A stretch of 60,479 nt of DNA, the filler included, from Jimgerdemannia flammicorona (taxonomy: Eukaryota): NCBI GenBank assembly GCA_003990765.1. It is 3 parts of 3 records of this genome, joined end to end, with 100 filler letters (N's around TTAATTAATTAA, not from the genome) between each part and the next. Parts side by side here need not be neighbours in the genome. Positions count along the whole stretch, not along the records: positions 1 to 20,094 come from RBNJ01001759.1; 2 more parts are not named here. One strand, written 5' to 3'. Every line of letters begins with the position of its first letter. Position 1 is the stretch's first letter. Positions 5,208 to 60,479 of the stretch are shown here, one piece after another. The translations under genes and the position numbers were made by a program. Under the pieces are notes generated by a model. The model searched no databases, was not told the DNA's origin, and saw only the letters and a program-made list of their open reading frames with translations.

Positions 5208-5677
5208 TGTGATGGTATAGCCAAATTTGGAAGAAGGAAATAGGGAATACATAGACACTTGATCGCACCCAGTCCCAAAGTAGTATAGCCTTATAGTTAG
5301 CAGTCCTCAATTTCAATATTGTCTAAATTCTTAGACATTATCTAAAATTTTAGACATTATCCAAATTGAATGTCCCAATTTAGTATAATATTTAGACATT
5401 GTTCAAATATTTTGACAAAGTCTAAATAACTCACTTATTACTTAGCCACCCTCTCATAGCTAGCAAACTTGTATAAATAACCCAGTATCTTCAAGTGAAT
5501 AAACCTCAGATCGAAAGTGTTAGAAAAAGAACAAGTATACTGATAAAAGGACCTTCGGGATTATCTCTTTAAATATATTTGGCCTCAAGGAACTACTGAC
5601 TCTGGGAGTCAAGAAGACAAGAATTCAAGATAAAGAAATCTGATGTACTTGCCCATCTTAGCATCTGCTACGTTACA
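5208..5677 (+). repeat. 5' LTR, family A copy 1
   Basis: TGTGAT...GTTACA; near-identical to 11505-11970. Contains TTTAGACATT(A/G)TC repeats, TATAAATA (~5472) and AATAAA (~5499). Confidence 0.92.
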
Positions 5678-5775
5678 ACTTAGTGCCCATTGGCTGGTGA
5701 TTCAAGACGAATCCCTCACTTCAAGCTGAACAACAAATAACCACAACCAGAACCCACATAACACAATCAGATAGA

Positions 5776-8700
5776 ATGGATATGAGACCCCCCATATTCC
5801 ATGGATATACATATGTCTGATAAATCAATCATTACCTTCATTGATGATTTCGAGTAGTATGCTGCTATAAGGACCTTAAGTGCAGCACAACAAGTAGCCC
5901 TACTCCCTGTAAGCCTCCAAGACCCAGCAAGAACCACATTTACTGCAGCCAATGTATAAGCAGCCAATGATCTAGCAAGAATCATAGCTTTCAAGACCTG
6001 GCTCCGAGCAACCTACTATACAGATGAAATCAAACAGGCACTCAAAGATCAACTGAATACTATCTGCCAAGGAATATCTGAAGACCCAAACACATTCTAT
6101 ACAAGAATCTGACATCAAATAGTCCTTGCTGACTACCCCGATGCAGTTCAAGACCAAGTGGCTGAGAATACCTTTATGAAAGGCATTCACCAAGAAATCA
6201 CTTTAGCTATTCGATCTACCCCAACACCACTGGACCTGAGACAGAAGGTTACCTACACCCAAAGATACTGGACTGCCAGACACCCTCAGGGCCATACAAT
6301 GGAAAGGATAACCAGAGTAAAAATTGAACAAGCACCAAGAGTCACCAATACAATCCTGGCTACCATAGTTAACTGGAATACACAACCATAACCACAAGAC
6401 TAGAGAAGAGTTGACCCAATGGAGGAACTGGCCAAACAGTTTGCAGAAATGACTGCACACCTCAGTGACATAGTCAAAGAGTTCAAGAAGACTTGAGGGC
6501 TGGCCTGTGGGAACTCCCAGCAGAGGAGGTTTCCTATTTCATACTCCTGCCACATTTGGGAAGCCAGTACAAAAGTTTGCTGCTACAAATACAAGATGAT
6601 CAATAACATGCTATAACTGTGGAGAAGAAGGCCACTATGCCTCCAAATGTATAATAGAAACCAAGCGAAAGGCCAATTCAAGCAATGCAACCAGAAACTG
6701 CGAGCAGGCAAACACTATCACCTTTGAGAAGATTGGAGAATCTGAGGAAGAGAGGGAAAAATGGGAAGCTTACCCTGCCACCTCAAGCAAGAAGGATGAC
6801 TGATCCAGTCCCTACAAAAGACCTCCAGGCAGACCTCCTAAGAAGGCCCGGACACAAACAAGACAACCAGAAACAGTCATTGAAAAAGAGAACCAGCACA
6901 GTGAAGCTGATCAAGATATAGAGCTGGAACAAAATGCTGAACTTGAATGAGCAGTAGAAGATATCATCAGAAACACCACCCCATCAAGTGAAGGGAAGAA
7001 GGAGCAGAAATTGCGCAAGAGTAAGACCTTCAAGTATGATATCTTCAAGGACCTCAAGGACCAAAAAGTCAATGCAACCTTTGGCCAACTAGCAGAAATC
7101 CCAACCTTCAGACAACAAATGAGGACAGGAATCTTAGACATTGGCAAAGACCAAGGTTACAGAATAATTGAAGCCAACAATGCACAAGAAGATTCAGATA
7201 AAGAGAGTGAAGATAACTGGAAAACATCAGCCTATGCTACTGACCAGATCAAGGACCAGGTCTTTGAAGCCATCATTGATACAGGAGCAGGAGGATATCT
7301 CATCACCAAGAAAGCAGTAGACTGCCTAGGTTGGGAGATAGAAGAAGCCACCAAATTGGTGTTTGTCACAGCTGATGGGACATGAGCAACACCCTTGGGC
7401 AAAATCCAAGATGTACCAATTAAGTTCGGTGAAGCCACTATCTCTATGGATGTCATTGTCATCAATGCAACCAACTATGATATCCTCATCAGCAACCAGT
7501 GGCTTCACAAAGCCAAGGCCATGATCAACCTCAGTGCATAGAAGATGCAGATCATCTACCTGAGAAAGAAGATCAGAATTCCCATCAATGTCCACAAAGG
7601 AGTCCACCCCAAGATAGAGGAAGACCAAGAAGAAGAAGCCTATATGGTTACTACAAAGAAAGGAAAAGGCAAGCAATTGACAGAGGAAGAATGATATACA
7701 AGAATTGCAGATGGATATGCTCCACTAGGAAGGTACCCCCATAGTGAAAGAATGTACTGTGCCCAGCACTTGGATTGCTACTACTCTTGTATCATTGAGG
7801 TGAAGAAGATCACCAACAAGCCAAAGAAGAACCAGGAGGAATCAGAAGATGGACCACCAGAACTATTGGATGACAGTGATGATGAAGAAGACATCACAGT
7901 TAAGATATGAAGAATTCACCCTAATGCAGTTATGCCACAATAAAAATTGGAGAATACAGCAGAAATGGACCTATCCATCATAATATACACAATACTCAAA
8001 CCACAGACCACCACTATTCTAGGAATAGGAATTGAAGTAACCATCCTGCCAAACCATGTTGGAATCCTCAAGACAAAGAGTGGCCTGGCTAAAAGTGAAA
8101 TATGTATAGAAGGAGGAGTCATCGATTCGGATTATACTAGAGAAATCCTTCTCCTTACTAGGAACCACAACCCAACAATTCCATTTGAAGTAAGGAAGAA
8201 GGATCAGCTGATGCAAATGCTCATTCTACCTGTCCTTAATCCAAGAATCAAAGAGGTTGCAAACATCAGACAAACTCAGCGAGGGAGAGCTGGATTCAGC
8301 TCTACAGAAAGAGAAGTCCTTGCAGCAACTAAGATCACTGAACTGGAGCACAAGAAGGAGAAAAGTCAAGACAAACACACCTACACAATTGGAAGAAACT
8401 TTCCCCTCAGGAAAGAATTGCAGAGCCTCTTGTATACATTTGAGAATGTACTGGCCATGGATTTCAAGGACATCAAGACCAAGAAACCCTTATATTATCA
8501 TGATGTCAATACTGGAGATGCAAAGCCAATCTATCAGAAGGCCTGCCCCATTCCACCAGTATACAGAGAATGGCTCAAGACAGAGATCAAGGAAATGGAG
8601 AAATCTGGTATTATTGAAGAAGCCAGCAGCCCTTGGTCCTCCCCCATTGTCCTTGCACCAAAGAAAGGAAGCCAATCAGGAGAATTTACACCAAGACTCT

Positions 8701-9830
8701 GCATAGACTATAGAAGACTTAACAAGGTCACAGAGAAGGACAGACAACTATTGCCAAACATTGGCAATATTCTTATCATGCTGGGGAATAAATTATGATT
8801 CTACACCACTCTGGATCTGTTCTCAGGATTCTACTAAATTGGCCTTACATCTGAAGCCAGCAAAAGATCAGCCTTCATCACCCCCGATGGAACCTATGTC
8901 TATCTCCACATGCCCTTTGGAATGTGCAATATACCAGCAAGCTTCCAGAAAATGATGAATAGCATCTTCAGAGATGTTATGGAAAAATGGATGATGGTAT
9001 ATGTAGATGATGTAATCATCTTCAGCCAAACTGCTAAGGAGCACTTGGAACACATCAAGGAAATTCTCAGAAGGCTTCATAAACATGGCCTCTATATTAA
9101 GCCCAAGAAATGCAAGTTTGGAGAAGAAGAAATCACATATCTTGGACACATCATTAACCATGAAGGAACACATATAGACCCTACAAAGATCAAAGCAGTA
9201 GCAGCATACCCAGTACCTACCAGTATCACTGAAGCCTGAGCCTTCATGGGACTTGTATCCTACTACAGAAGATTTATTAGAAGGTTCTCCCACATCGCCA
9301 GTCCTATCTATGATCTGTTCAGAAAAGAGATCAAGTTCCAGTGGACTCAGCAGCAGCAACTAGCCTTTGACGAGCTCAAGACCAGATTGACCCAGGCCCC
9401 AATCTTGAGAAGACTCGACTGGACTCAAGAGTTTATTCTGCAGATGGATGCCAGTGCAATAGGACTTGGAGCTGTCCTCGTATAAAAGAAGAATGGTGCT
9501 GAATATATGGTAGCTTATCTCAGCCAAGGTATCCGAGAAGCTGAGCAGTCCTATGAATCATACAAGTTGGAATGCCTTGCAGTTATCTGGGCTGTAGAGA
9601 AGTTCCACTACTATCTGGCTGGCAGATACTTCACCATCCAGACAGATCATTTGGCACTCACCTGGTTGCTCACTACCAGTGAGCCCAAAGGAATCTATGC
9701 CTAATAAATCATAAAGCTGCAAGCATATGATGCCACGATCACCTACTGCCCTGAAAGAACCAATGCCAATGCTGATGCCCTCTCACAGACACCCCAAAGG
9801 ACCCCACCCTTACAAAATCACTATGAATAA
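5776..9830 (+). pseudogene. gag-PR-dUTPase-RT-RNaseH polyprotein pseudogene (family A copy 1)
   Basis: ORF fragments at 7011, 7947, 8910, 9246 and 9507 share one frame and are broken by stops of the CGA>TGA/CAA>TAA type. A small frameshift near 5805 and an insertion at 6492 disrupt gag. The frame ends ...NADALSQTPQRTPPLQNHYE* at 9828-9830. Confidence 0.9.
7893..8310 (+). pseudogene. dUTPase domain between protease and RT
   Basis: Trimeric dUTPase motifs: EMDLS, KTKSGLAK, GGVIDSDYTREI, KKDQLMQMLI and RGRAGFSST. Confidence 0.9.
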
Positions 9831-11016
9831 GGAGCTATACTACAGAATCATCAGCTACCTGGGGCAGCGAAAGATGCCCCCACATCTGGAAGAATGGACA
9901 AAAACAATTATTAATCAGACATGGAAACAATTCGAAACAGATGGAGAAATACTTAAGAAAGGACAACAATTAGTCATCCCCAAGCATCGGAAGAATCAAG
10001 TAATGAAAGAAGTACATGAACAGGGTCACATAGGAGGAACAAATATATATAACAAAGTGAGAAGAACCATATGGTGGCCTGGAATAGAAGAAGATATCAG
10101 ACAATTTGTCAGGACCTGTGACAAATGCCAGAAACAGAAACAAGACTGATGAGATCAAGCTCCTGGATCAGCAGACATCAAACTGATACCATTTGCCCAC
10201 ATTGCAATGGATGTAATCGGCCCCCTACCCCTGACATTGACTGGCAACTGATATGTCATTGTAATAGTAGACCTGTTTACAAAATGGGTAGAGGCTGGGC
10301 CGCTCAAGGAAGCCAATGCACAGTCAATTGCTGATTTCTTATACAGAGAAATCATTTGCCAATTCAAGACCCCAAAGCAAGTTACCACAGACAGAGGAAT
10401 AGAATTTGTCAACCAGTTTCACAAGATTCTTTACAAGAAGTACAAGATCCAGCACATCAAGACCACCACATATCACCCACAAGGAAACAGACAAGCAGAG
10501 AGAACCAACAAGATCCTCAAGAACATCATCACCAAGATCTGTGATGAATATGGAAACTGGGACTACTATCTTCCAATAGCATTATCTACTCTGCGGGACA
10601 TACAATTGCAAAGCACCCATTTTACACCATGAGAAATGCTATTCAGTGAAGAAAGTTCTGGTAGAAGTTTGTCAGTAAGTAATAATGCAATTTGGAAGTA
10701 TGTGGACACAGAGATACGGAGATTGCACCAGATCAGGAAAAAGGCAGAGGATTACATAATCAGGGCACAGGCACTGCAACGGAACAATGTGGAAAAGACT
10801 CACAAGCCCCTGGAGATTATCAAGATAGGAGATGAAGTCCTAGTGTATTAGAATATAGTAGAAGCCTCTTGGTCATGAAAACTGGAGCCCAAGTGGGAAG
10901 GACCTTACCTGGTACAAGATATAAAAGAGATCACTTTCCGACTACGAAAGCCCTCAGGCACAATAATCCCTACCACCATTCATCAAAACTGACTCAAGAA
11001 GTACCATGGCCAATAA
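9823..11016 (+). pseudogene. Integrase encoded as a separate ORF (HHCC, core, GPY motif; no chromodomain)
   Basis: ATG at 9823 (MNKELYY...) is in the +1 frame relative to RT/RH. Motifs VHEQGHIG...CDKCQ, IAMDVIGPLP, VDLFTKW, TDRG and KWEGPY. Ends LKKYHGQ* at 11016. Confidence 0.88.
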
Positions 11017-11467
11017 CCAAAGTACTGCAATGGTACTCAAGATCACTAGTGCTACACAAAGGGCCATCGAAAGACAATGGCACACCACCGAGCCTCTGAC
11101 TATAGAGGTATACTATGATGATATTCAGAGTATTGTGCAGACTCATCTCTCTTGAATCTTGCACTTTAGAGCCTATTAATATCAGGCAGAATTCCAAGAG
11201 TACTTCAAGCTTGAACAGGTACTCAATCAGGATCCAGCAAAGACCAAAGAGGACTGGATTACCAAGTGTCAACTCTCTCACTCACAGATCACTATTGCCA
11301 AAAGGATCCACAAGTTATTCTAAGAAGATGAACCAGCAATAGACCACCTGAGAGGAGTAACCCCTACTGACTTCGAGAAGGTGAGAAGACATCATTGGGA
11401 AACAGTTATATAGCAAATTGCACAGTACAAAACCATACAGATAGTTGAAGCCTGGGAGTTTGAATAG
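11006..11467 (+). pseudogene. Accessory ORF3 of family A (153 codons, unknown function)
   Basis: The ATG overlaps the integrase stop (ATGGCCAATAA). Reads MANNQSTAMVLKITSATQRAIERQW...EFQEYFKLEQVL...IAKRIHKLF*EDEPAIDHLRGVTPTDFEKV...AWEFE*. Start, stop and length match copy 2 (12775-13236). Confidence 0.8.
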
Positions 11468-11504
11468 ATGCCTCAGGGATGAGACCATCTATTCAGAAGG
11501 AAGT

Positions 11505-11970
11505 TGTAATGGTACAGCCAAATTTGGAAGAAGGAAATAGAGAATAGACACTTGATCGCACCTAGTCCCAAAGTAGTATAGCCTTATAGTTAGCAGTTCT
11601 CAATTTCAATATTGTCTAAATTCTTAGACATTGTCTAAAATTTTAGACATTATCCAAATCAAATGTCCCAATTTAGTATAGCATTTAGACATTGTCCAAA
11701 TATTTTGACAAAGTCCAAATGACTCACTTATTACTTAGCCACCCTCTCATAGCTAGCAAACTTGTATAAATAACTCAGTATCTTTGAGTGAATAAACCTC
11801 AGATCAAAAGTATTAGAAAAAGAACAAGTATACCGATAAAAGGACCTTCGGGATTACCTCTTTAAACACATTTGGCCTCAAGGAACTACTGACTCTGGGA
11901 GTCAAGAAGACAAGAATTCAAGATAAAGAAATCTGATGTACTTGCCCATCTTAGCATCCGCTACATTATA
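11505..11970 (+). repeat. 3' LTR, family A copy 1
   Basis: Follows the PPT and matches the 5' LTR with mostly transition differences. Followed by the ATAT TSD. Confidence 0.92.
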
Positions 11971-11974
11971 ATAT

Positions 11975-12270
11975 ATATAGAGACTTCTATCTTTCTTATA
12001 GATAAAGAGGATTGGTATACTATATGGTAATTTTGATAAATATATAAGATCTTTATTTAACAGATCTACTAACTATTCTTCAAGAGTTTCCAGCTCAGAA
12101 TAAGCTAATCAATAGATTCTATAGTAGAGAGGATCTACTTCTAGAGTAGTTTTGATGCTATATTCTACTACTCAAATAGGTGATAGTTCTTTAAGTTTTT
12201 AAAAGATATTTTCATAATCTTTGAGTAGTTCCTGGAGGCTTTCTTTTTCTTTATCTTTATTCTTTAATAG
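11975..12270 (-). mobile_element. Continuation of the chromovirus relic (RT N-terminal region)
   Basis: Minus strand near 11985-12040 reads LSKLPYSIPILFI*ERDRSL, a decayed PSKSPY.APVLFV.KKDGSL. It continues the RT interrupted at 5207. Confidence 0.6.
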
Positions 12271-12774
12271 TGTAACATAGTGGACACTAAGATGGGCAAG
12301 TACGTTGGATTTCTTTATCTTGAATTCTTATCTTCTTGACTCCCAGAGTCAGTAGTTCTTTGAGGCCAAATGTGTTTTTAAAGAGGTAATCCCGAAGGTC
12401 CTTTTATCAGTATACTTGTTCTTTTTCTAATACTTTTGATCTGAGGTTTATTCACTCTAAGATACTGGGTTATTTATACAAGTTTGCTAGCTATGAGAGG
12501 GTGACTAAGTAATAAATGAGTCATTTGGACTTTGTCGAAATATTTGGACAATGTCTAAATGCTATACTAAATCGGGACATTCAATTTGGATAATGTCTAA
12601 AATTTAGACAATGTCTAAGAATTTAGACAATATTGAAATCGAGGACTACTAACTATGAGGCTATACTACTTTGGGACTGGGTGTGATCAAGTGTCTATTC
12701 TCTATTTCCTTCTTCCAAATTTGGCTGTACTGTCACAACTTCCTCCTGAATAAATGGTCTCATCCCTGAGGCAT

Positions 12775-13236
12775 CTATTCAAACTTCCAGGCTTCAACCA
12801 TCTGTATGGTCTTATACTATGCAATTTGCTGCATGACTGTTTCCTAATGATGTCTTCTCATCTTCTTGAAGTCAGTGGGGATTACTCCTCTCAGGTGGTC
12901 TATTGCTAGTTCATCTTCTTGGAATAACTTGTGGATCCTTTTGGCAATAGTGATCTGTGAGTGGGAGAGTTGACACTCGGCAATCCAGTCCTTTTTGGTC
13001 TTTGCTGGATCCTGATTGAGCACCTGTCCAAGCTTGAAGTACTCTTGGAATTCTGTCTGATATTGATAGGCTCTAAAGTGTGAGATCCAAGAAAGATGAG
13101 TCTGCACAATACTCTGAATATCCTCATAGTATACCTCTATGGTCAGAGGCTTGGTGGTGTGCCATTGTCTTTCAATGGCTCTTTGAGCAGCACTAGTGAT
13201 CTTGAGTGCCATCACAGTGCTTCAGTTATTGGCCAT
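12775..13236 (-). pseudogene. Accessory ORF3 of family A copy 2
   Basis: 462 nt, same frame as ORF 12844..13215 (…YQTEFQEYFKLGQVL…IAKRIHKLFQEDELAIDHLRGVIPTDFKKMRRHH). The ATG overlaps the integrase stop. Confidence 0.8.
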
Positions 13237-14419
13237 GGTACTTCTTGAGTCAGTTTCGATGAATGGTGGTGGGGATTATTATGCCTGAGGGCTTTCATAG
13301 CTAGAAAGTGGTCTCTTTTATATCTTGTACCAGGTAAGGTCCTTCCCACTTGGGCTCCAGTTTTCATGATCAAGAGACTTCTACCATATTCTGATACACC
13401 AGGACTTCATCTCCTATCTTGATAATCTCCAGAGGCTTGTGAGTCTTTTCCACATTGTTCCATTGCAGTGCCTGTGTCTTAATTATGTAATCCTCTGCCT
13501 TTTTCCTGATCTGGTACAATCTCTATATCTCTGTGTCCACATGCTTCCAAATTGCATCATTACTTGCTAATAAACTTCCATCAGAACTTTCTTCACCAAA
13601 TAGCATTTCTCGTGGTGTAAAATGGGTGCTTTGTGATCATATGTCCTGCAGAGTGGATAATGCTATTGGAAGATAGTGGTCTCAGTTTCTGTATTTATCA
13701 CAGATCTTGGCAATGATGTTCTTGAGGGTCTTGTTGGTTCTCTCTGCTTGTCTGTTTCCTTATGGGTGATAGGCTGTGGTCTTGATGTGTTGGATCTTAT
13801 ACTTCTTGTAAAGAACCTTATGGAACTGGTTGACGAATTCTGTTCCTCTGTCTGTAGTAACTTGTTTTGGGGTCTTGAATCGGTAGATGATTTCTCTGTG
13901 AAAGAAATCGGCAATTGACTGTGCATTGGCTTCCTTGAGGGGTCTGGCATCTACTCATTTTGTAAATAGATCCACTATTACAATGACATATTGGTTACCA
14001 GTCAATGTCAGGGGTAGAGGGCCAATTACATCTATTGCAATGTGGGCAAATAGTATTGGTTCAATATCTGCTGATCCAGGGGCTTGATCCTGTCAGTCTT
14101 ATTTCTGTTTCTGGCATTTGTCACAGGTCCTGACAAATTGTCTGATATCTTCTTCCATTCTGGGCCACCACATGGTTCTTCTCACTTTGTCATATATATT
14201 TGTTCCTCCTACGTGACCTTGTTTATATATTGCTTTCATTACTTGATTCTTCCAGTGCTCAGGGATAACTAATTGTTGTCCTTTCTTAAGTATTTCTCCA
14301 TCAGTTTCAAATTGTTTTCATGTCCGATTAATAATTGTTTTTGTCCATTCTTCCAGATGTGGGGGCATCTTTTGCTGCCCCAGGTAGCTGATGATTCCAT
14401 AATACAGCTCCCTATTCAT
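13226..14419 (-). pseudogene. Integrase ORF of family A copy 2 (separate frame)
   Basis: ATG AAT AGG GAG at 14419 overlaps the RH-frame stop (…NHYE*). Colinear with 9823-11016. Confidence 0.85.
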
Positions 14420-17400
14420 AGTGATTTTGTGGGGGTGGGGTCCTTCGGGGTGTCTATGAGAGGGTGTTGGCATTAGCATTGGTTCTTCCAGGGTGGTGGG
14501 TGATTGTGGCATCATATGCTTGCAGCTTCATGATCCATTGGGCATAGATTCCTTTGGGCTCACTGGTAGTGAGCAACCAGGTAAGTGCCAAATGATCTGT
14601 CTGGATGGTGAAGTGTCTGCCAGCCAGATAGTAGTGGAACTTCTCCACAGCCCAGATGACTGCAAGGCATTCCAGCTTATAAGACTCATAGGACTGCTCT
14701 GCCCCACGAGTACCTTGGCTGAGATAAGCTACTATGTATTCAGCACTATTCTTCTTTTGTGCAAGGACAGCTCCAAGTTCCATTGCACTGGTATCCATCT
14801 GGAGAATAAACTCTTGAGTCCAGTTGGGTCTTCTCAGGATTGGGGTCTGGATCAATCTGGTCTTGAGCTCATCAAAGGCTAGTTGCTGCTGCTGAGTCCA
14901 CTGGAACTTGACTTCTTTTCTGAACAGATCATAGATAGGACTGGCAATGTGGGAGAACCTTCTAATAAATCTTCTGTAGTAGGATGTAAGTCCCATGAAG
15001 GCTCGGGCTTCAGTGATACTGGTAGGTACTGGGTATGCTGCTACTGCTTTGATCTTTTTAGGATCTGTATGTGTTCCTTCATGGTTGATAATGTGTCTAA
15101 GGTATGCGATTTCTTCTTCTCCAAACTTACATTTCTTGGGCTTGATGTAGAGGCCATGTTTACAAAGCCTTCTGAGAATTTCCTTGATGTGTTCCAAGTG
15201 CTCCTTGGTAGTTTGGCTGAAGATGATCACATCATTTACATATACCATCATCCATTTTTCCATAATATCCCTGAAGATGCTGTTCATCATTCACTGGAAG
15301 CTTGCTGGTGCATTGCATATTCCAAAGGGCATGTGAAGATAGACATAGGTTCCATTGGGAGTGATGAAGGCTGATCTTTTGCTGGCTTCAGGTATAAGAC
15401 CGATTTGGTAGAATCCTGAGAACAGATCCAGGGTGGTGTAGAATCGTGATTCATTCCCCAGCATGATAAGAATATTGCCAATATTTGGCAATAGTTGTCT
15501 GTCCTTCTCTGTGACCTCGTTGAGTCTTCTATAGTCTGTGCAGAGTCTTGGTGTAAATTCTCCTGGTTGGCTTCCTTTCTTTGGTGCAAGGATGATGAGG
15601 GAGGACCAAGGGCTACTGGCTTCTTCAATGATACCAGATTTCTTCATTTCCTTGATCTCTGTCTTGAGCCATTCTCTGTATGCTGGTGGAATGGGGCGGG
15701 CCTTCTGATAGATTGGCTTTGCATCTCCAGTATTGACATCATGATAATATAAGGGTTTCTTGGTCTTGATGTCCTTGAAATCCGTGGCCAGTACATCCTC
15801 GAATATATGTAAGAGGCTCTGCAATTCTTTCCTGAGGGAGAAGTTTCTTCTGATTGTGTAGGTGTGTTTGTCTTGGCTTTCCTCCTTCTTGTGCTCCAAT
15901 TCGGTGATCTTAGTTGCTGCGAGGACTCCTCTTCCTGTAGAGCCAAATCCAGCTTTCCCTCACTGAGTTTGTCTGATGTTTGCAACCTTCTTGATTCTTG
16001 GATTAAGGACAGGTAGGATGAGCATTTGTGCCAGCCGATCCTTCTTCCTTACTTCAAATGGAATGGTTGGGTTGTGGTTTCTGGTGAGGAGGAGAATTTC
16101 TCCCATGTAGTCTGAATCAATAACTCCTCCTTCTATCAATATTTCACTCTTTGCCAAGCTACTCCTTGTCTTGAGGATTCCGACATGGTTTGGTGGGATG
16201 GTTACTTCAATTCCTGTTCCTAGAATAGTGGTGGTCTGCAGTTCGAGTATTGTGTGTGTTGTGGTGGATAGGTCCATTCTTGCTGCATTCTCCAATTTGT
16301 ATTGTGGCATAACTGCATCAGGGTATCTTGACTGTGATATCTTCATCCTAATCATCACTATCATCCAATAACTCTAGTGGTCCATCTTCTAGTTCCTCCT
16401 GGTTCTTCTTTGGCTTGTTGGTGATCTTCTTTACCTCAATGATACAAGAGTAGCAGCAATCCAAGTACTGGGCACAGTACATTCTTTCACCATGGGGGCA
16501 CCTTCTTAGTGGGGTGTATCCATCTGTGATTCTTGTATACCATTCTTCCTCTGTCAATTGCTTGCCTTTTCCTTTCTTTGTAGTAACCATATAGGCTTCT
16601 TCTTCTTGGTCTTCCTCCATCTCGGGGTGGACTCCTTTGTGGATATTGATGGGAATTCTGATCTTCTTTTTCCAGTAGATGATCTGCATCTTCTGTGCAC
16701 TGAGGTCAATCATTGCCTTGGCTTTATGAAGCCATTGATTGCTGATGAGGATATCATAGTTGGTTGCATTGGTGATGATGACATCTACAGGGATAGTGGT
16801 CTCTCCAAACTTGATTGGTACATCTCAGATCTTTCCCAAGGGTGTTGCTCGTGTTCCATCAGCTGTGACGAATACCAGTTTGGTGGCTTCTTCTATCTCC
16901 CAGCCTAGGCAGTCTACTGCTTTCTTGGTGATGAGACATCCTCCTACTCCCATATCAATAATGGCTTCGAAGACTCAATCCTCAATCTGGCAGGTAGCAT
17001 AGGCTGATGTTTTCCAATTATCTTCACTCTCTTCATCTGAATCTTCTTGTGCATTATTGGCTTCAATTATTTTCCAACCTTGGTCTTTGCCAATATCTGA
17101 GATTCCTGTCCTCATTTGTTGTCTGAAGGTTGGGATTTCTGCTAGTTGGCCAAAGGTTACATTGACTTTTTGGTCCTTGAGGTCTTTGAAGATATCATAC
17201 TTGAAGGTCTTGCTTTTGTACAATTTCTGCTCCTTCTTTTCTTCACTTGATGGGGTGGTATTTCAGATGATATCTTCTACTGCTCAATCAAGTTCGGCAT
17301 CCTGTTCCAGCTCCATTTCTTGATCAGCTTCACTCTGCTGGGTCTCATTTCCGATGATAAGTTCCGGTTGCTTTGTTTGTGTCTGGGCCTTCTTAGGAGG

Positions 17401-18003
17401 TCTGCCTGGAGATCTTTTGTAGGGACTGGATCAAACATCCTTCTTACTTGAGGTGGTGGGGTAAGCTTCCCATTCCTCCCTCTCTTCCTCAGATTCTCCA
17501 ATCTCCTCAAAGGTGATAGTGTTTGCCTGCTTGCAGTTTCTGGTTGCATTGCTTGGATTAGTCTTTCACTTGGTTTCTGTCATGCATTCGGAGGCATAGT
17601 GGCCTTCTTCTCCACAGTTGTAGCATGTTATTGATTGTCTTGTATTTGTAGTAGCAAACTTCTGTACTGGCTTCTTCTTGAACTCTTTGACTATGTCACT
17701 GAGATATGCAGTCATTTCTGCAAACTGTTTGGCCAGTTCCTCCATTGAGTCAACCCTTCTCTGATCTTGTGGTTGCGGTTGTGTATTTCGGTTGACTATG
17801 GTAGCTGGGATAGTATTGGTGGCTCTTGGTGCTTGTTTGATTTTTACTCTGGTTATCCTTTCCATTGTATGGCCTTGAGGGTATCTGGCAGTCCAGTATC
17901 TTTGGGCATAGGTAACCTTCTGTCCCAGGTCTAGTAGTGTTGGGGTGGATCGAATGGCTAAAGCAATTTCTTAGTGAATGCCTTTCATAAAGGTATTCTC
18001 AGT

Positions 18004-20094
18004 CAAAAAAAGATCTTCAACACTTTCTCCGGTAACATTCAGGTTACACAAGACTCAGACAACACTTTCTATAACGTTTTTGGTGTCCAGCGACTAACAA
18101 CATGGATGGCAACGATCAATCTAGTGAGCGTACTGGCCAGGGGGGTAGCAGCGCCTTTGGCTGGCAGCAGGTGGGGAGGAGGGGAGATGGTTTGGGGATG
18201 CCAGGGGCCTCGATGGCTAGCCAGGGCCCCAGCGGCGGAGGAAGGGGAGGCCTGAGGCAGAGAGGAGGGGAGAGGACGACTTTTGCTGACAAGGTCAGGA
18301 TGGGGGCGATGGCTTCTGGGCTGGATAGTTGGCTGGGCCTAGGGAAGGCATCGATGGCTACTATCGGGGGTCAAGGAGGTGCACCCCTGGGTGCTTCTAG
18401 TGGTAGGGTAGAGGCCGGAGTAGGGGCTGGAGATGTGACGGTTGATGGGGCTGTGACTGGGGATCTGGCAAAAAATCCAGATGTGACGGCGGTTGGCAAT
18501 TCGGGACTTGGAGTGGGCACGAGGCCCGGGGACCTGGCGGATGGGGTGACGGGCATGGTGTCGGCCCCGTTACTCAAGAAGTCGTGGTCCGAATTCGCGG
18601 TCACGATGTGCTTCCGGGGCTTGGCAGTGACGGCAAGGATGATTTTGGGGCTGGTGGCACAGGAGGCTAAGGGAGCAGCATCGGTGAAGTTTTTGAGGGG
18701 AAAGGAAGGGGTTGAAGTGGGGTTCAAGGAGGAGGATGCCTTGTTGGCAGCCATGGAGAAGGGGGTGATGGTTGGCGGGGTGGTGGTCCCTATGGCTTGG
18801 TGTATGTGCTGGGACCCCCGGGTGGTGCAGTTGACGGTGTTGGACCTCCCTACGGTGTCGAAAGAAAGGACCAGAGAGTTGGTTGTAGAGGCGATAAAGG
18901 AGTATGGTGAGATTGTGGACGTGGGGTTCAAGGTCTGGGAGGGCACGGAGCTTAGAACTGGAGATGTCGATGTCAGGGTGAGACTGGCTGGAAAGGAGAA
19001 TACGGGGAAGTCGAGGGACTGGCCAGTAGCGCTGAGGTGGGGACCAGTGGAGTGTAAGGTCGCTAGGGTGAAGGGGACTCAGGAGGAGGAGGAGGACTTG
19101 CTGGAAGCGCTGGAGGACCTGGAAGGGGCTGTTGCAAGGAGGAGATTAGCCTGGAAGGAGTTCGAGGCCAGGACAGTGGTGGGAGAGGTGGATGGGAAGA
19201 GGGTTCGGATGGAGAAAGGGGCCTGGGAGAAGATGCAGGGGAGGAGGATTCAGAAGGAGTTGTTGGCAAAGTTGGATGGGGGTAGGGCTGGTGGAAGCTC
19301 TAGGGAGGGAGCTGCAGGGTTGCAGGAGAGTGTCTGGGTGGAAGGAGGCGAGATGGCCCGGGGCGGAGCTCCGATTGGAGGCGGGGAGGAGAGGGAGGTT
19401 AACCTGGAGGTGGATGCCGAAATGGGGGATGGTGGGTGCCCTCAGTACAGTGTGCCGAATGGGGCGGGAGGCGAGGAGGAGCTGATGGATGTGCCGGATG
19501 AGGAGTAGGATGAGTCAGTAAGGAGGAGCGCATTGGTGGACCCCGAGGTGGATGGGGGACAAATTGCTCAGGGGGTGGTGGAGGCGGTTGATGAGGAGAA
19601 GTGGATGTGGAAGACCCTGGAAGGGGTAGCAGCTGAAGAGCTGGGGGGTGAGGACTTCAGGGTGATGGAGGAGAGGCATTGGGAGGAGATTCTATGTGGG
19701 GAAGAGGTGCTGAGGAAGATGAGGAATGAGATCCTGGCGGTCCTCTTGGAGTCGGTTGAATATCAGGTTGATGATCAGCGTGAGGAGGAGCTCAGACAGA
19801 TTGCGAGTGAGAGGGCACTTGTTTTGTGGAACTCAAGGAAGGGACTGGAGAAGTGGCGCGCAGTCTGCTTAGATTATAGGGCAGATATGGAGGAGGTGGA
19901 CAGGGTGGAGTGTCAGGAGATCTTGGGGGCACTGGATGCTCAGGATATTGAGGAGGGGGAAGTGGAAGCTGAGCGGCTCTTGGACTTGGCGAGGGATGAG
20001 ATGAGCATGGAATTATAGGCTGGAGACTCTTCTACAATATCTATTCAATATGAACAGTACAACTAGGATATTCTCTTTGAATGTTAATGGGTTA
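18004..20094 (+). mobile_element. L1/Tx1-like LINE, 5' part (ORF1 and start of ORF2), cut by the contig gap
   Basis: ORF1 18102-20018 has a single TGG>TAG stop at 19506. ORF2 starts at 20050 (MNSTTRIFSLNVNGL, the APE endonuclease N-terminus). Matches the second copy from 35173. Confidence 0.88.
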
Positions 20095-31265: not shown

Positions 31266-34200
31266 TCATTGCTTATCTCATATGCTGTATGATCTTCTTG
31301 TACTCTAATCTGGTGGCTTGTAAGAAAAGGCTGTCTCCTGTGCTAATGTCATCATTCTGGGGTCACCATTATATCTTCCTCCTGAATAAGAATCTTCCTG
31401 AGCATCCTTATTCATTGGTCCAGTCCTGAAAAATTTGCTGATCCCATAATCTCTGGCAAGGGATCAAAAACTGGTGCTTATGGGCTGGCGTCTTCCCTTT
31501 GTATTTTGGCATGATAGTGAAGGGTCACTCCCTTCATATAGAGCAAGGACCTGATTCTGATCTTGACCAATCAGTTGATGGTTCGAACTCCTCTGACTGC
31601 AAAAGTCTCACAGATGAGTAGTTGCCAGTACTGTATCCCTTAGAGAATGGTCCAGACAGATAGCCTGCTGGTCATAGGACATGCTGTTATGATTCGTGGA
31701 CTAGAACCTCATGGGTAGTCATTACATTTTGCTTCTCTTATATAGGTTCATGGTACTTCTTGAGTCTGTTCCTATGTACCATAGTAGGCAGTATGGTCCC
31801 TGAGATTTTTCTAAGCCAGAAGGTAGTTTCCTTGATATCTTGCACATAGAAGGGTCCTTCCCATTTGGGCTCCAGTTTTCGTGACTATGAGGCTTCTACC
31901 ATATTTTGATACAGTAGAACTTTTTCTCTGATTCAGATGAGTTCTAGGGCCTTGTGATTCTTTTCTGCATTCTTTCTTATCAGCGCTTGTGACTTGGTGA
32001 TATAATCTTCAGCCTTCTTCCTGATTTGGTATAGTCTCCAGATTTCTGCATCAACCCATCTCCAAGTTAGGTCTAGATTTGTGGCTAAGGTTCTATCAGA
32101 ATCTTCTTCTCCGAAGAGCAGCTCTCTTGGGGTAAAATGTGTGCTCTGTAATCATATGTCTCATAAAACAGAGAGGGCAGTTGGGAGATAGTTATCCCAA
32201 TTCTCATATATCTCTGAGATCTTCACTAAGATGTTCTTGAGGGTCTTGTTGGTTCTCTCTGTCTGTCCATTTCCTTGAGGGTGGTATGTGGTGGTCTTGA
32301 TATGCTGAATCTTATATTTCTGATACATTATCTCATAGAATCCATTGACAAATTCTGTGCCACAGTCTGTTGTGATTTGCTTTGGTGTCTTGTAGTGGCA
32401 GATGATTTCTCGGTATAGGAAGTTGGCTATAGAGAGGGCATTGGCTTCTTGTAATGCTCCTGCCTCTATCCATTTGGTGAAGAGGTCTACAATAACTATA
32501 ATATAGTGGTTTCCTGATAGTGTTACTGATAGTGGTCTAATAATATCCATTGCGATGTAGTGGAAGAGGATAGGCTCAATTCTTGATGATCCAGGTGCCT
32601 GGTCTTACTGATCTTGTTTCTGTTTTTGGCACTTGTCACACCCTTTGACAAATTGGTGCAGGTCTTCTTCCATCTTGGGCCACCACATGGTTCTTCTTAC
32701 CTTGTCATATGTATTGGTTTCTCCTAAGTGTCCTTGCTTATGTACTTCCTTCATTACTTGATACTTTTTGTGTTCAGGTATTACTAGCTTTCCTTCTTTT
32801 CTGAGTGTAGTGTTGTCTAATTCAAACTATTTCCAAGTCTGGTTAATGATAGTGATTGTCCAGGGTTCGAGGTGATTGGACATCTTTCGCTGCCCAAGAT
32901 AGCTGATTAATCCATAGTATAGCTCCTTATTTATGTTGAGTAGTCTTGATGGGAGTGTTTCAGGGTGTCCTTGAGAGTGCATCGGCATTGGTGTTGGTCT
33001 TTCCTGAGTGGTGCTTGACAGTACAGTCATACTCTTACAGCCTGTAGATCTATCTGGCATATATTCCTTTGGGGTTCAGAGTGTGGAATAGCCAGGCAAG
33101 AGCAGAATGGTCTATTTGAATGGTGAAGTGTTTTCCAGCTAGGTAGTAGTGGAACTTGTCTACTGTCCAAACTATCGCTAAGCATTCAAGCTTGCATGAC
33201 TCATAGTTCTGTTCTGCTCCATGAATACCTTGGCTTACATAGGAGATGACATATTCATGTCTATCTTTCTTCTGAGCTAGGACTGCTCTAAGTCATATAG
33301 CACTCGCATCTGTCTGCAGGATGAATTCTAGGTTCCAGTCTGATCTTCTGAGGATGGGTGCTTGGGTCAACCTGGTCTTGAGTTCATTGAAGGTTTCTTG
33401 GCACTCCTTGGTCCATTTGAATTTGGTCTCCTTCTTCAGTAGCTCATAGATAAGTGCTGCAATATTGGAGTATCCTTTGATGAATCTTCTGTAGTAGCTG
33501 GCCAGTCCAAGGAAGGCATGGACTTCTGTGGTTATTCTGGGTCTTGGGTAGGCTGCAACAGCCTCAATCTTCATAGAGTCTGTGTGGATTCCAGTCTGAT
33601 TGATGAGGTGTCCTAGGTAGGTGATTTCTTGAGCTGCAAACTTACATTTCTTGGGCTTGATGTAGAGGCCATGCTCCTTGAGCCTCTTGAGGGCTAGCTG
33701 TATGTAATTGACATGTTCCTGTGCAGTGTTGCTGAAGATGATCACATCATCAATATAGACAAAGAGCCATTTTCCAATCTTGTTGCTGAAGACTCTATTC
33801 ATCATTCGCTGGAAACTTGCTGGGGCATTGTACATTCTAAATAGCATTTACAGATAGATATAGGTGGCATCAGGTGTGATGAAGGCTGATTTCTCACTGG
33901 CATCTTGAGTGAGACCAATCTGATGGAAGCCTGAGAACAGATCCAAGATGGTGTAGTATTTGGCTTCACTTCCAAGAGTAGTAAGGATTTCTTGAATATT
34001 CGGTAAGGGCTGCCTATCCTTCTTGGTGATGGCATTGAGTTTCCTGTAGTCAATACAGAGTCTTGGTACAAACTCTCCAGGCTTGCTTCCTTTCTTTGGG
34101 GCAAGAACAATGGGTGAGGCCCAGGGGCTGATAGCTTGCTTGATGATTCTGGCTTCTTCTATTTCCTTGAGTTCAGCTTGCAGCCACTCTCTGTAGGCAG

Positions 34201-35172: not shown

Positions 35173-38100
35173 ACACCTTTCACCAGTAACATTTGGGTGA
35201 CACAAGACTCAGACAACACTTTTTACAATGTTTTTGGTATCTGACGACTAACAACATGGACAGCAACGATCGATCTGGTGAGCATACTGGCCAGGGGGGT
35301 GATGGCGCCTTTGGCTGGCAGCAGGTGGGGAGGAGGGGAGATGGTTTGGGGATGCCAGGGGCCTCGATGGCTAGCTGAGGCCCCGGCAGTGGAGGGAGGG
35401 GAGATCTGAGGCAGAGAGGAGGGGAGAGGTCAACCTTTGCTGACAAGGTCAGGATGGGGAAGATGGCTTCTGGGCTGGATAGTTGGCTGGGCCTGGGGAA
35501 GGCGACGATGGCTACTGCTGGGGGTCAGGGAGGTGCACCCCAGGGTACTTCTGGTGGTAGGGAAGGGGCTGGAGTAGGGGCTGGAGATGTGACTGTTGAT
35601 GGGGCTGTGACTGGGGATCTGACAAAAAATCCAGATGTGACGACAGTTGGCAATTTGGGACTTGGAGTGGGCATGAGGCCCAGGGACCTGGCAGATGGGG
35701 TGATAGGCATGGTGTCGGCCCCGTTACTCAAGAAGTCGAGATCCGAATTCATGGTCATGATGTGCTTCTGGGGCTTGGCAGTGACGGCAAGGATGATTTT
35801 GGGGCTGGTGGTGCAGGAGGCTAAGAGAGCAGCGTCAGTGAAGTTCTTGAGGAGAAAGGAAGGGGTTGAGGTGGGGTTTGAGGAGGAAGACACCTTGTTG
35901 GCAGCCATGGAGAAGGGGGTGATGGTTGGCAGGGTTGTGGTCCCTATGGCCCGGTGTATGCACTGGGACCCCCAGGTGGTGCAGTTGATGGTGTTGGACC
36001 TTCCTATGGTGTCGAAGAAAAGGACCAGAGAGTTGGTTGTGGAGGTGATCAAGGAGTATGGTGAGATTGTAGATGTTGGGTTCAAGGTCTGGGAGGGCAT
36101 GGAGCTTAGAACTGGAGACGTCGATGTCAGGGTGAGACTGGCTGGAAAGGAGAATACGGAGAAGTTGAGAGACTGGCCAGCAACACTGTGGTGGGGACCG
36201 GTGGAGTGTAAGGTCACTAGGGTGAAGGGGACTCAGGAGGAGGAGAAGAACCTGTTGGAGGCTCTGGAGGACCTGGAAGGGGGCAGTTGTGAGGAGGAGA
36301 TTAGCCTGGAAGGAGTTTGAGGCCAGGACGGTAGTGGGGGAGGTGGATGGGAAGAGGGTTCAGATGGAGAAGGGGGCCTGGGAGAAGATGCAGGGGAGGA
36401 GAATTCAGAAGGAGTTGTTGGCGAAGTTGGGCGGGGGTAGGGCTGGTGGAAGCTCCAGCAAGGGGGCTGCAGGGCTGCAGGAGAGTGCCTGGGCTGAAGG
36501 GGGAGAGATGGCCCAGGGTGGGGCTCAGATTGTAGTCAGGGAGAGGAGGGAGGATAACTTGGAGGTAGATGCCGAAATGGGCGAAGGTGGGTGCCCTCAG
36601 TATAGTGTGCCGGATGGGGCAGGAGGTGAGGAGGAGCTGATGGATGTACCGGAGGAGGAGTGGGATGAGTCAGTGAGGAGGAGCATACTGGTAGACCTCG
36701 AGGTGGATGGGGGACAAATTGCTCAGGGGGCAGCAGAGGCAGTAGATGAGGAGAAGTGGATGTGGAAGACCCTGGAAGGGCTAGCGGCTGAAGAGCTGGG
36801 GAGTGAGAACTTCAGGGTGATGGAGGAGAGGCATTGGGAGGAGATTCTATATGGGGAAGAGGTGCCAAGGAAGATAAGAAATAAGATCCTGGCTGTCCTC
36901 TTGGAGTCTGTTGAGTATCAGATTGATGATCAGCGAGAGGAGGAGCTTAGAAGGATTGCGAGTAACAGGGCACTTATCTTGTGGAACTCGAGGAAGGGAC
37001 TAGAGAAGTGGCACGCAGTCTGCTTAGATTACAGGGTGGATATGGAGGAGGTGGACAGGGTGGAGTGTCAGGAAATCTTGGGGGTGCTGGATGCTCAGGA
37101 TATTGCGGAGGGTGATTTGGAAGCTGAGCAGCTCTTGGACTTGGCAAGGGATGAGATGAGCATGGAATTATAGGTTGGGGTCCCTTTTACAATATCTACT
37201 CAATATGAACAGTATAACTAGGATATTCTCATTGAATGTGAATGGGTTACGGGGGGCAGCTAGGAGGAAGTACATCTTTGGTTGGCTTCGGGGTCTGGAT
37301 GCGGACCTCTTCTTGTTACAGGATGTTCGGTATGATGCAGATGTGGATTTACAGGATTGGACTAAGGAATGGGGGGGTGCAGCAGTTTGGAGGGGGAAAG
37401 TGGGTATTCTTGTTTGGAAAGGGATGGGGGACATTGGGGACATTGGACATTGGGGTTGCAGGTGGTGTGGGGAGTATGGCAGAGGCCTGGATGGGGCTCG
37501 CTGATGGTTGGGTCTTGTTACTATCCAGCTGAGAGAGGGGAGAGGGTGGATTGGATTCGCAGGTTGAAAGAGGCTGGTTTATTGGGAGAAGTTGGGTTTG
37601 ACTGTATGGGGGGGGACTTCAACATGGTACGGGATAAGGAGTTGGACAGAACTGATGGAGAGAGAGGCATGCGAGGTGAAAGTGGTGGGTTGGCAGACTG
37701 GTTGGAGATGGAAAGGTTGTGTTCTTTAGTGGACTCAGGGAGACATTTTTGGGCTGATCGGTGGATGTATACCCATTGGGTGGCAGGACTGGGCTCTAGG
37801 ATTGACTGGGTTCTAACAGCAGAGTGTTGGGGAGCAGATGTCTGGACAGTGCTGGGTGTCATATGGTGTCTATGGTCTGATCACTGGGGGTTGCTTGGAG
37901 GGGAGAGGTTTGGGGGAAATGAGGATGGGCCTGGATATTGGTGGCTAAATTCTTCCTTGTTGGAGGATAGGGCATTGTGGGAGGGTTGGGAAACAGAGGT
38001 GATCAGAGATATCAGCAGGTGGCAGGATCAAGGACTGGTGATTGGGAACCGCTGGAGAAGGCTGAAGGTGAAAGCTCAGGGGTATTGAAGGGAAGTGGGG

Positions 38101-40287
38101 AAAGGAAAGAGTGCTCAGCATAGGCAGCAGGTGATGTGGGCCTTGCAGTGTTTGGTGGCGCTCATGGAGAGATGGGTGGGTATGCTGGAGGATAGGGCCA
38201 AGGCTGATTGGCATATTGCAAGAATCTGGCAGGAGGTGGAGGAGCTCAAAGGGGTGCTATGGAGGGAGGAGGAGGAGCAGCTGCAGGGGATGGTGGCCTG
38301 CTTGTGATGGCAGGAACTTGAGGAAGGGGAGAGACCTACCAGGTTCTTGTCACGGTTGTTACAAGCATGATGAATGAGGCAGCGGTGGGAGGGAGTTTTG
38401 GATGAGAATGGTGAGCTAGTGGTGGGGACCCCAGTGATTTTGGGCCTCTTGCGATCCCAGTGGGAGAACCTTTGGAGTGAGGATGAAGGGGGACTGGATG
38501 CCCTAGACATTGAAAGGCAGCTGGGGGATTGGCACCCGGACCCTGCTATGGGACTTGTGGCATTGGGGGACCCAGTGAGTGGTGAGGAGATTTGCAAAGT
38601 GGTGGCCTCTATGAGTAAAGAGACAGCCCTGGGAGAGGATGGACTCCTCTGAGATTTTTGGCAGAAGATGACAGGGGTGCGTGAGGTACTTGAGGAAATG
38701 ATGGCTATGTGTGATGAAGTTCTTCGGTCTAGTGCCTGGATTGGGGGACAGTGCTTGGGGCTGGTCTCCTTGCTATATAAGAACAAGGGCAGGAGGGAGG
38801 ATTGGAAGAACTGGCGGCCAATCATGCTTCTGGACATGGACCACAAACTGGTGACGAAGATCTTGGTGTTGCGGTTGCAAGGGATCGCACAGCAGGTGCT
38901 TGGTTTGGAGCAACGTGGGTTTGTCAGCAGTCGATTGATTCGAGATGGGACAGCCTGGGTTCATGGAGTGATTGAAGGTACCCGGGCTACAGGGGTGGAT
39001 GGCAGATTGGTATTTCTAGACCAGGAGAAGGCTTATGATAGAGTGTGGAGAATATGGCTAGAGGGAGTGCTGAAGCGGATTGGTATCCCTTCAGGGTTCC
39101 GAGGTTCATTGATCAGCCTCTTGGAGGACAGTCAGGTGGCATTGGTCCTCAATGGCCACCAGGGGGTAACCTTCCCCCTGGGCCATGGGGTGCCACAAGG
39201 GGACCCCTTGTCACCCATATTGTATGCCCTTTCCCTGGAGCCACTACTGGACAGGATTCGGTATAAGATTGGAGGTTTGGACATCTTAGGGGTGAACTGG
39301 AAGGTGGGGGCCTTTGCCGATGATATGGTGGTTGGACTGGGGTCCTTGGGGGATGTTGGAGAGTTGCAGAGGACAGTGGAATGGTATGAGCGGGGTTCCA
39401 GTGCTAAACTGAACTGGCACAAATGCAAGATGCTGGTGCTGGGCACTGGAATTGTCAGTGGCAATGTTATTGGAATGGTGGTTCTGGCTGGTGAACCAGT
39501 GTGCTACTTGGGGATCTACTTCTCAGTGTTCGGATCTCTTCTTCCTCGGGCATGGTGGGACTGTAAACTGCTGGAGTGGGGCAATGTCTTGATGCGGTGG
39601 GGAGGCCGGCATATGTCCCTAGCCAGAAGGGTGATGGTGTTGAATGTGTACTGGATGCCGAAGCTGTGGTATGTTGGATATCATTTGGATTTCCTGCCGT
39701 GGGTGGTTAAGGGGTTGTTGAAGATGGCGAGGTCATGGATTTGGGGAGGGCGGCAGAGCCAGGTTAGTTGGGAGGTGCTCATGCTGCCCTTGGAAAGAGG
39801 TGGACTGGGCTTAGTAGACTTTACTAAGCAGCTTTTATGTCTGAGGGCCTGGTGGCTAAGGAGGGCGAGTGAGCTTAGAGGTTGGGAGTGGGTGCCACTC
39901 ATGCAGAGATTGTGGGAGGTTTGATACTCCCCATGTGGTGGCTCCAGCGACCTGCTTGCAATAGTGGCTATAGAAGGGAGTCGGAGGATGCGGTTTACAG
40001 GCTTTTGGTGGGGAGTGGTAGATGGTGCTAAGAAAATCAGCCTTCAGTGGTGAGGTGACGAGGCTGAGGAAGTTTGGGGACCGCAGATGTGGAGATGGGA
40101 CAGGCTTCTATTGGGTGGTATTCTGGTGGAGAACTTTCAGCTTGGCGAGGGTCTGGAGTACCTGCGAGGCCTAGGTGGAGACCTGTGGCCTGAAGCCTGG
40201 CAGAGGGTTGGAATCGGGGAAGAGTGGGATTGGAATGGGCTCTGGCTTTGGAGCAAACGGGTGAGGCAGTGGCTGCCCCCCAAGTTC
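35173..40287 (+). mobile_element. L1/Tx1-like LINE with intact 5' end: ORF1 (35256-37173) and ORF2 (37205 onward; APE endonuclease and RT); 3' end lost in the gap
   Basis: Endonuclease motifs SLNVNGL, GGDFNMV, SRIDWVL and SDH. RT motifs NWRPIMLL, LDQEKAYDRV, GVPQGDPLSPILY and FADD. Broken by stops and frameshifts. Confidence 0.93.
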
Positions 40288-46109: not shown

Positions 46110-46446
46110 GTTGTAGGGGATAGCAACGCTGGATTCGGACCTGCTGACAAAATGCTGAAAACGGTGGTACTGGGTAGCAACGCTGGATTCGGATGAGCTG
46201 ACATGATACGATAATTGTTGCCAGAAACAGTTGTAGAGGGTAGTAACACTGAATTCGGACCTGCTGACAAAATGCTGAAAATGGTGGTACTGGGTAGCAA
46301 TGCTGGATTCGGATGAGCTGACATGATACGATGATTGTTGCCGGAAACAGTTGTGGAGGGTGGTAACGCTGAATTCGGACCTGCTGACAAAATGCTGAAA
46401 ATGGTGGTACTGGGTAGCAATGCTGGATTCGGATGAGCTGACATGA
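46110..46446. repeat. About 3 x 120-bp tandem repeat (two related subunits) in the family C LTR U3
   Basis: TTCGGACCTGCTGACAAAATGCTGAAAA recurs at 120-bp spacing (lines 46141, 46261, 46381), alternating with GGATTCGGATGAGCTGACATGA. Confidence 0.9.
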
Positions 46447-46455
46447 GCTGGGTTC

Positions 46456-47463
46456 TCACAGCTGATGGGCGGTACTCTGGAGGAAATAGTACCCTTCGTC
46501 CGTGGCGGGCAAATCTTGCTGGGTTGTGATTTCTTCTTCATCATGTCTCTCCTCAAAGGGGGGAAGAGCCGGCCAAGAGGTGAGGGGGTAGAAAAGTGGC
46601 CAGTCATCTTCAACAACATTCTCCAACCCTTGAACAGCTTGAATGCGGACAGAGGACTGGTAGACTCTCTGTTGCTCCTCTTCTTCTTCTGAAGACTCGT
46701 CAGTTTCAGTGTCAGAGGGGGTTTCTCCAGGGGTGGGGTCTTGGAGTTCTTGGGCTTCCTCTTTAAAGACAGGGACTTCTTGAGCTTCTTCTTGATTCGG
46801 TTCCCAAATGATGAGATGTGAATTGTGGCTGACAGGGTGGTGGGTGGTTGGGGTAGCTCCAACAGGTGTCTCTATAGTGATGGGCAGTCCTTCAAATATC
46901 TCCATAAGACTCATTAGGTGACCTTGATGGTTGTCTCGGAGTGGAGTGGTGTGGAAGCCTGGCTGAGTAGGTTTGGTTTGTTGGCTTCCTACGGCGATGC
47001 AGTTGCTGCCAATAGCATTGGCTACTTCAGATTCTATCCAGTCAGCATCTTCAGTTGAAAGACGTGAGAGGCTGCCAGCTGTTACTCCTTGCAAGTGTGC
47101 TATAGCCCAGGGAATATGGCGGAAGATTTGATGGATATGGAGGGCTCTCTTGATTAGCCGGCTGGTGGTTAACATTTCAGCAATGAGGTCTTCCTGGTCG
47201 CCTTCTTGAGTCTCATTGCGAAGGCGGTGTCCGATTTCATAGTCATGCCAGAGGGTCATTCGTTCGGTAGTGTCTTTGAGCTGTTGGGTCATTATATACC
47301 GGTAGTTGATGAAGTGTCCAAGGTCCTCAGTGTAGAAGTTCAAGTGTTCAGTAGTGTCTGGGCACCAGATGGCCTTCTTGATAGCTTCGAAGATCAGGGT
47401 CTTTGGGCCAGGCAAAGGGGTAGAGCGGCGGGAGGTCTGGTTGGATCAGCGAATGGGAGGCAT
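46456..47463 (-). CDS. LTR-encoded accessory protein (335 codons; one early TGA at codon 6, then open to the end), unknown function
   Basis: ATG at 47463 is in frame with ORF 46456..47415: MPPIR*SNQTSRRSTPLPGPKTLIFEAIKKAIW…LWHDYEIGHRL…RALHIHQIFRHIPWAIAHLQGVT…, followed by an acidic low-complexity C-terminus. Confidence 0.75.
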
Positions 47464-60408: not shown

Positions 60409-60479
60409 GTATGTCAGAACTGTGTAAAGCATTGTGGCAGATGCACGATGGAATGAAGTTCACGATCTGTACCTGTTTG

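Follow-up and report, generated by a model that had tools for sequence, protein, structure and literature searches.

The analyzed window, i.e., the whole stretch of 60,479 nucleotides of Jimgerdemannia flammicorona DNA (GCA_003990765.1; three parts joined end to end), harbors three decayed copies of a long terminal repeat (LTR) retrotransposon, designated A1, A2, and B, all of them dead and carrying many C-to-T and G-to-A changes. Copy A1, on the plus strand, is bounded by a 5′ LTR (5208–5677, TGT...ACA) and a 3′ LTR (11505–11970), 94.6% identical over 466 aligned bases; the latter ends in TA, the other two LTRs in ACA. Directly 3′ of the 5′ LTR lies a primer-binding-site-like sequence (5681–5698) beginning with TAG here and with TGG in the relative L093; a TGG-starting site directly after the ACA end, a candidate primer-binding site, is found in L093, L095, and L098. 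The interior comprises a decayed gag-pol (5776–9830) encoding Gag with a CCHC knuckle, protease, dUTPase, reverse transcriptase (RT), and RNase H; a separate integrase gene (9823–11016) with an H2C2 zinc finger, an rve core, and a GPY motif, interrupted by seven internal stops; and a third open reading frame, ORF3 (11006–11467), of 153 codons in the +1 frame, whose ATG falls within the 3′ end of integrase. A polypurine tract, read from the sequence (11495–11503), precedes the 3′ LTR. Pfam searches with stops read as X assigned the upstream frame to protease, dUTPase, RT, and RNase H, and the downstream one to the H2C2 finger and the rve core.

The 3′ LTR of A2 (12271–12737, minus strand), 93.8% identical to that of A1, lies tail to tail with it at a distance of ~300 nt, and the two copies together (5208–18005) form a long inverted repeat, ~91% complementary. 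A2 and B both lack their 5′ ends, each being cut short at a copy of one G-rich repeat (18023–19424 and 35177–36579; 88% identical), although they are situated on different contigs. The gag of A1 contains ~70 nt extra in comparison with L093, at ~6487–6561, where its frame is broken. Elsewhere, the window contains a 423-codon open frame with an RT domain (38653–39924), probably another retroelement, a protein kinase (58261–59271) with named relatives from Endogone and Jimgerdemannia, and tandem repeats of 120 nt (46110–46469) and ~170 nt (59826–60456).

Many features of the element are those of Ty3/Gypsy: direct LTRs of the TG...CA type, the polypurine tract, the order protease–RT–RNase H–integrase, and an integrase with H2C2, a DDE core, and GPY/F. 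At the same time, and in contrast to Ty3/Gypsy (Metaviridae), the integrase stands outside the polyprotein with an ATG of its own, and a third, non-env ORF overlaps its end. Since the integrase lies outside Pol, the elements are treated here as a Gypsy-type lineage and not as a canonical member of Ty3/Gypsy.

In copy A1, the RNase H frame closes as ...NHYE-stop and the integrase frame opens as MNKELYY at 9823, offset by +1, within the start/stop overlap ATGAATAA (9823–9830, plus strand; the gag-pol stop TAA occupies 9828–9830). The corresponding overlaps are ATGAATAG in A2 (14412–14419, minus strand; ATG at 14419) and ATAAATAA in B (32927–32934, minus strand), where the start position is 32934 and the ATG is present in 28/30 loci of the family. 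Hence, the claim of the initial annotation that the integrase of A1, A2, and B is a separate +1 ORF was borne out at all three junctions.

The same arrangement recurs throughout the genome. The DNA searches yielded 40 scored matches for each of families A and B, of which 30 per family were inspected, in family A the best 30 (A1 and A2 being included in the first set and B in the second). The +1 offset was present in 29/30 loci of family A, along with TAA or TAG five bases past the start in 30/30 and the ATG in 26/30; in family B, the offset was found in 30/30. The single family A exception (L017) is a copy in which a 10-nt deletion merges the RNase H and integrase frames, and which is otherwise decayed. 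Two more families, C and D, were found by protein searches with more distant integrases (30 and 20 loci, respectively, inspected out of 150 matches). Family C displays ATGAATAA in the +1 frame at 28 of 29 loci with RNase H, the remaining one having a one-base insertion, while family D displays ATGA in the −1 frame at 19/19 such loci; each family includes one further locus without RNase H. Thus, both frames occur within one genome, +1 in families A–C and −1 in family D. Some C and D copies have premature TGA or TAA triplets 10–60 nt ahead of the ATG; these were not accepted as the true stop, because sibling copies carry CGA or CAA at these sites.

Outside this genome, a search with the open integrase stretch retrieved 24 proteins, and a representative search added more, starting with MN, MD, or ME. 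Stand-alone integrases of ~410–430 aa with an MN or MD start were encountered at 39–49% identity, and seven distant complete proteins among the 24 measured 409–423 aa (39–48% identity), six of them starting with MN(K/R/A)(E/D) and one (P0006) bearing this motif at residue 8. No fused protein above 38% identity appeared among the best 120 of 285 long-protein matches, a blank that constitutes weak evidence. One cluster of stand-alone integrases (P0148) has members annotated to an archaeal metagenome-assembled genome, where they lie on a contig of 2.5 kb; this is probably mis-binned fungal DNA.

A metagenome scan covering about half of the collection retained 80 loci of 533, and a scan of viral contigs yielded four loci, all distant. 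The ingroup consisted of 24 metagenome loci, and all 12 with RNase H upstream were split, i.e., out of frame with an integrase 40–51% identical to the query; two of the 12, L095 and L096, represent the same element, and L093 is close to family A. Among the 60 outgroup loci, 47 had RNase H upstream, of which 38 showed one open frame, six an offset, and three an in-frame stop (one offset locus, L124, duplicates L123). These nine were not counted as split; in five of the six offset loci, by a direct check, the nearest in-frame ATG was at least 25 nt from the stop or absent, and the offset loci checked had no coupled ATG. Two outgroup loci, L112 and L169, have the integrase upstream of RT, the order of Gmr1-type elements.

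The initial annotation had named a continuous RNase H–integrase frame in intact copies as the observation that would refute the split, and it called for an alignment of genomic copies and relatives across this junction. Open relatives, however, keep the split: L095/L096 are fully open (Gag-Pol of 1564 aa, integrase of 418 aa, ORF3 of 230 aa) and show no continuous frame. Both assemblies carry short direct repeats at their termini, as would a circular or tandem form. Gag and Pol share one reading frame in L095 as well as in L093 and L098.

Two quick trees, built without bootstrap, place the split elements together. In the maximum-likelihood integrase tree (83 rows, near-duplicate loci excluded), the split integrases formed one clade with an SH-aLRT of 99; its 31 rows included all 15 split loci, 14 stand-alone Met-initiated proteins, and two loci of unknown status, with no fused member. 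In the RT–RNase H tree (54 rows), the 13 split loci likewise formed one clade (SH-aLRT 95), standing apart among unnamed or loosely named Gypsy-like RTs in a tree that lacked a curated reference set. The integrase clade takes in named proteins from Rhizophagus irregularis and Paraglomus brasilianum. In the Rhizophagus gene model P0204 (GET51362.1), RNase H is joined to integrase residue ~36, and its RT, of odd composition, falls outside the split RT clade; the extension of the lineage to Glomeromycotina is therefore drawn from the integrase. As this model lacks ~50 residues around the RNase H start and adjoins a stand-alone model with the next accession, its fusion looks like gene-finder stitching. 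Overall, the split is lineage-wide in these Gypsy-type elements and is not confined to one family, and the lineage is likely one of early-branching fungi. The view that the overlap is no random frameshift thus stands, since the +1 offset is kept in 59/60 copies of families A and B and relatives are split as well; these observations support the split of integrase from gag-pol as a real, inherited feature.

Fourteen junctions were compared across the lineage. The integrase ATG is present in all of them, and the gag-pol stop is situated −5, −2, +1, +5, +7, or +8 nt from it in 14/14, giving rise to the forms TGAtcATG, TAATG, TGATG, ATGA, ATGnnTAR, ATGgatcTAG, and ATGaacacTGA. The integrase frame is +1 relative to gag-pol in five junctions and −1 in nine; the linker between the last RNase H motif and the ATG varies from 35 to 92 nt, and the tail peptides it encodes are unrelated between lineages. 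Hence, conservation concerns an ATG situated at most a few bases from the stop, while the frame and the linker vary. The initial description of a +1 frame and a ATGAATAA overlap is a matter of individual families and does not extend to the lineage as a whole. Under a null model of free stop placement, the probability of such proximity is ~5e-8 for seven sub-clades, a figure to be used as a guide only, because the model ignores inheritance and genome compaction.

The second overlap reported in the initial annotation, between integrase and ORF3, is less uniform than implied there. In A1, it takes the form ATGGCCAATAA (11006–11016), and the integrase stop lies at +8 from the ORF3 ATG in 20/25 family A and 17/21 family C copies in which the motif was found; in family B, it is mostly further downstream. 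The ORF3 ATG is situated in the +1 frame within the integrase Y-H codons in most relatives (L094 is devoid of this overlap), and the integrase stop follows it by 5–131 nt. The reported overlap therefore exists and its ATG is conserved, but the stop is loose, and ATGGCCAATAA predominates only in families A and C. Within the same elements, this loose stop provides an internal contrast to the tight integrase junction, and it suggests that ORF3 is expressed in a mode unlike that of integrase. The eleven ORF3 proteins are homologous, with leave-one-out profile E-values of 3e-12 or better (for a database of one, the alignment having included the held-out row). Neither the window copy nor 10 relatives matched a Pfam family, and the top ESM Atlas matches were unnamed proteins only. 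The AlphaFold model (pLDDT 84.7) is all helical; Foldseek returned no match at E ≤ 0.001, and the best VIA Z was 5.0, a value by which the fold can be neither named nor called new. ORF3 is regarded as a conserved protein with a predicted helical structure.

The sequences show the integrase to be a separate gene whose conserved ATG coincides with or adjoins the gag-pol stop, and it is fairly probable, if far from certain, that it is translated from the full-length RNA by coupled termination–reinitiation instead of being cleaved from a long polyprotein as in textbook retrotransposons. According to this scheme, ribosomes would read a dispensable tail of 12–30 codons after RNase H and terminate, and a minority of them would restart at the integrase ATG. 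As Gag and Pol share one frame, such a restart would keep integrase below Gag, a ratio that other elements achieve by frameshifting, with no need of a gag/pol frameshift. To get into the particle or onto the cDNA, the free integrase would then need to bind RNA, RT, or Gag non-covalently, probably in cis. A stop that tracks the ATG across changing frames fits this scheme and argues strongly against frameshifting. The junctions of the lineage match known reinitiation sites of the UAAUG, AUGA, and AUGnnUGA types. To judge from the available text of PMC2699510, termination–reinitiation at UAAUG, AUGA, and AUGucUGA junctions proceeds with an efficiency of 4–20%, and the CHV1 case demonstrates that the process works in fungi, tolerating a spacing of 1–10 nt. 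On the other side, reinitiation after a long ORF usually needs an upstream element, as stated in the accessible part of PMC10275272, and no shared upstream element was found here, which may count against reinitiation. Specifically, the UGGGA core of TURBS was not found within 120 nt upstream in any of the 14 junctions, and no shared hairpin was found in 80-nt windows (folding z-scores were mixed, −4.4 to +2.2, in a test of low power with pseudoknots outside its model). Synonymous-site identity showed no rise before the junction (four-fold sites in nine pairs, also of low power).

The failure to find a reinitiation element is compatible with the integrase being translated from its own shorter RNA, arising from an internal promoter in RNase H or from splicing of a 5′ leader to an acceptor before the ATG, the stop/start proximity being then a matter of compaction. 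Separate RNAs for pol or env occur in retroelements (e.g., foamy virus pol and env); a conserved ATG would suit any independent initiation, and ORF3, whose stop is loose, may well depend on an RNA of this kind. Still, this explanation does not account for the unconserved tail of 12–30 codons, which every sub-clade keeps free of stops as far as the ATG. A YAG acceptor is absent from the upstream 60 nt in 4/14 junctions and takes no common position in the others, and the closest out-of-frame ATGs precede the integrase ATG by 11, 34, and 46 nt in three lineages, so that the leader would have to be very short. Overall, a separate RNA is the main rival to reinitiation, albeit not a probable one.

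Retention of the fusion to Pol, by programmed frameshifting or a small intron removing the stop, would solve the packaging problem and accord with the constant +1 offset in families A, B, and C; fused forms are represented by P0204 and, through its deletion, by the decayed L017. Considering the change of frame between sub-clades, even within one genome, together with the retention of the ATG at every junction, this seems quite improbable. Moreover, the integrase frame is closed by stops 6–11 codons upstream in four lineages. Slippery heptamers of the X-XXY-YYZ type are present in 3/14 junctions, each different, so that neither a constant offset nor a shared shift site is apparent, and none of the best 120 long-protein matches listed is a fusion of more than 38% identity. 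Among the three mechanisms of the initial annotation, +1 frameshifting is thus contradicted by the −1 frame of relatives and family D and by the kept ATG, and termination–reinitiation is favored.

Cap-independent internal ribosome entry at the ATG, regardless of upstream translation, would agree with a conserved ATG located deep in the RNA and with the A/C-rich, U-poor sequence upstream of it in several lineages. It would, however, leave the upstream stop with no need to track the ATG, and neither conserved structure nor synonymous-site constraint was found; such a mode of expression is considered very unlikely. Finally, a decay or assembly artefact, i.e., a frameshift in an amplified dead master copy, is suggested by the dead state and base changes of all window copies but is hardly conceivable, since it is already refuted by the open yet split L095/L096 and at odds with the split in four families and all 12 ingroup metagenome loci as well as with its confinement to a clade in both trees.

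The proposed termination–reinitiation has counterparts among viruses and mobile elements, compared here on the basis of the available text of the papers cited. An out-of-frame stop and start a few bases apart are characteristic of CHV1 (UAAUG), HvV190S, FCV (AUGA), RHDV (AUGucUGA), and the influenza B M1/BM2 junction, two of these examples functioning in fungi (PMC2699510, PMC10275272). The lineage described here makes use of all three of these junction shapes, and the spacing in ATGAATAA is that of RHDV. In the RNA viruses, at the same time, an upstream TURBS, pseudoknot, or coding element accompanies the junction and the coupling has been measured, whereas no such element was found here and we infer the coupling. 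A stop/start overlap (UAAUG, between ORF1 and ORF2) yields the downstream enzyme in the retrotransposon SART1 as well (cited in PMC10275272), but this is a non-LTR element with no integrase and no particle-packaging problem.

Individual traits of the lineage are likewise met elsewhere: a dUTPase between protease and RT is shared with PosPlaTy3-5, a dUTPase-bearing fungal Ty3/Gypsy element (PMC2864245), and a single Gag-Pol frame with DGLT-A (PMC5911963). Ginger1 DNA transposons and GIN genes provide examples of a stand-alone Gypsy-type integrase of ~400 aa with H2C2, DDE, and GPY/F (PMC2836005), and the N-terminal extension of ~50 aa in the integrase described here displays a Y/L-P-F/Y-L pattern which, by eye only, resembles the YPYY region that precedes the zinc finger in Ginger1. 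Unlike Ginger1, the lineage consists of LTR elements with direct LTRs and RT, lacking terminal inverted repeats and, by Pfam, an OTU/Ulp1 domain; the tree contained no Ginger sequences. The available portions of PMC5911963 and PMC5009743 contain no case of a separate integrase. No description of the split-integrase layout was found in the literature covered, which took in little of the subscription journals and Repbase Reports, both possible sites of such an annotation, and no supplements.

Synthesis of integrase within Gag-Pol is regarded as a rule with hardly any exceptions among LTR retrotransposons and retroviruses, since dosage and packaging are thereby solved together. Here, this rule is broken by a successful clade, represented by four families in this genome and by thousands of first-look candidates, implying that another solution exists. 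A more far-reaching and doubtful reading is that an old Mucoromycota clade of LTR retrotransposons swapped the gag/pol frameshift and the packaging of integrase within a polyprotein for a tricistronic RNA translated by stop and restart, with the integrase loaded free and ORF3 promoting reinitiation or carrying the integrase into the particle. The stop/start geometries, at least six in number, offer a natural series for studying how eukaryotic ribosomes reinitiate once they have translated a very long ORF, and the question of how a free integrase finds its cDNA becomes testable. Annotation pipelines, in turn, will read such elements as frameshifted or take their integrase for a lone transposase. 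The origin of Ginger1 from LTR elements is an open proposal according to the available text of PMC2836005 and PMC6839031; if the stop-and-restart reading is true, an integrase gene standing by itself in this way would represent the sort of intermediate that could give rise to Ginger1-type DNA transposases.
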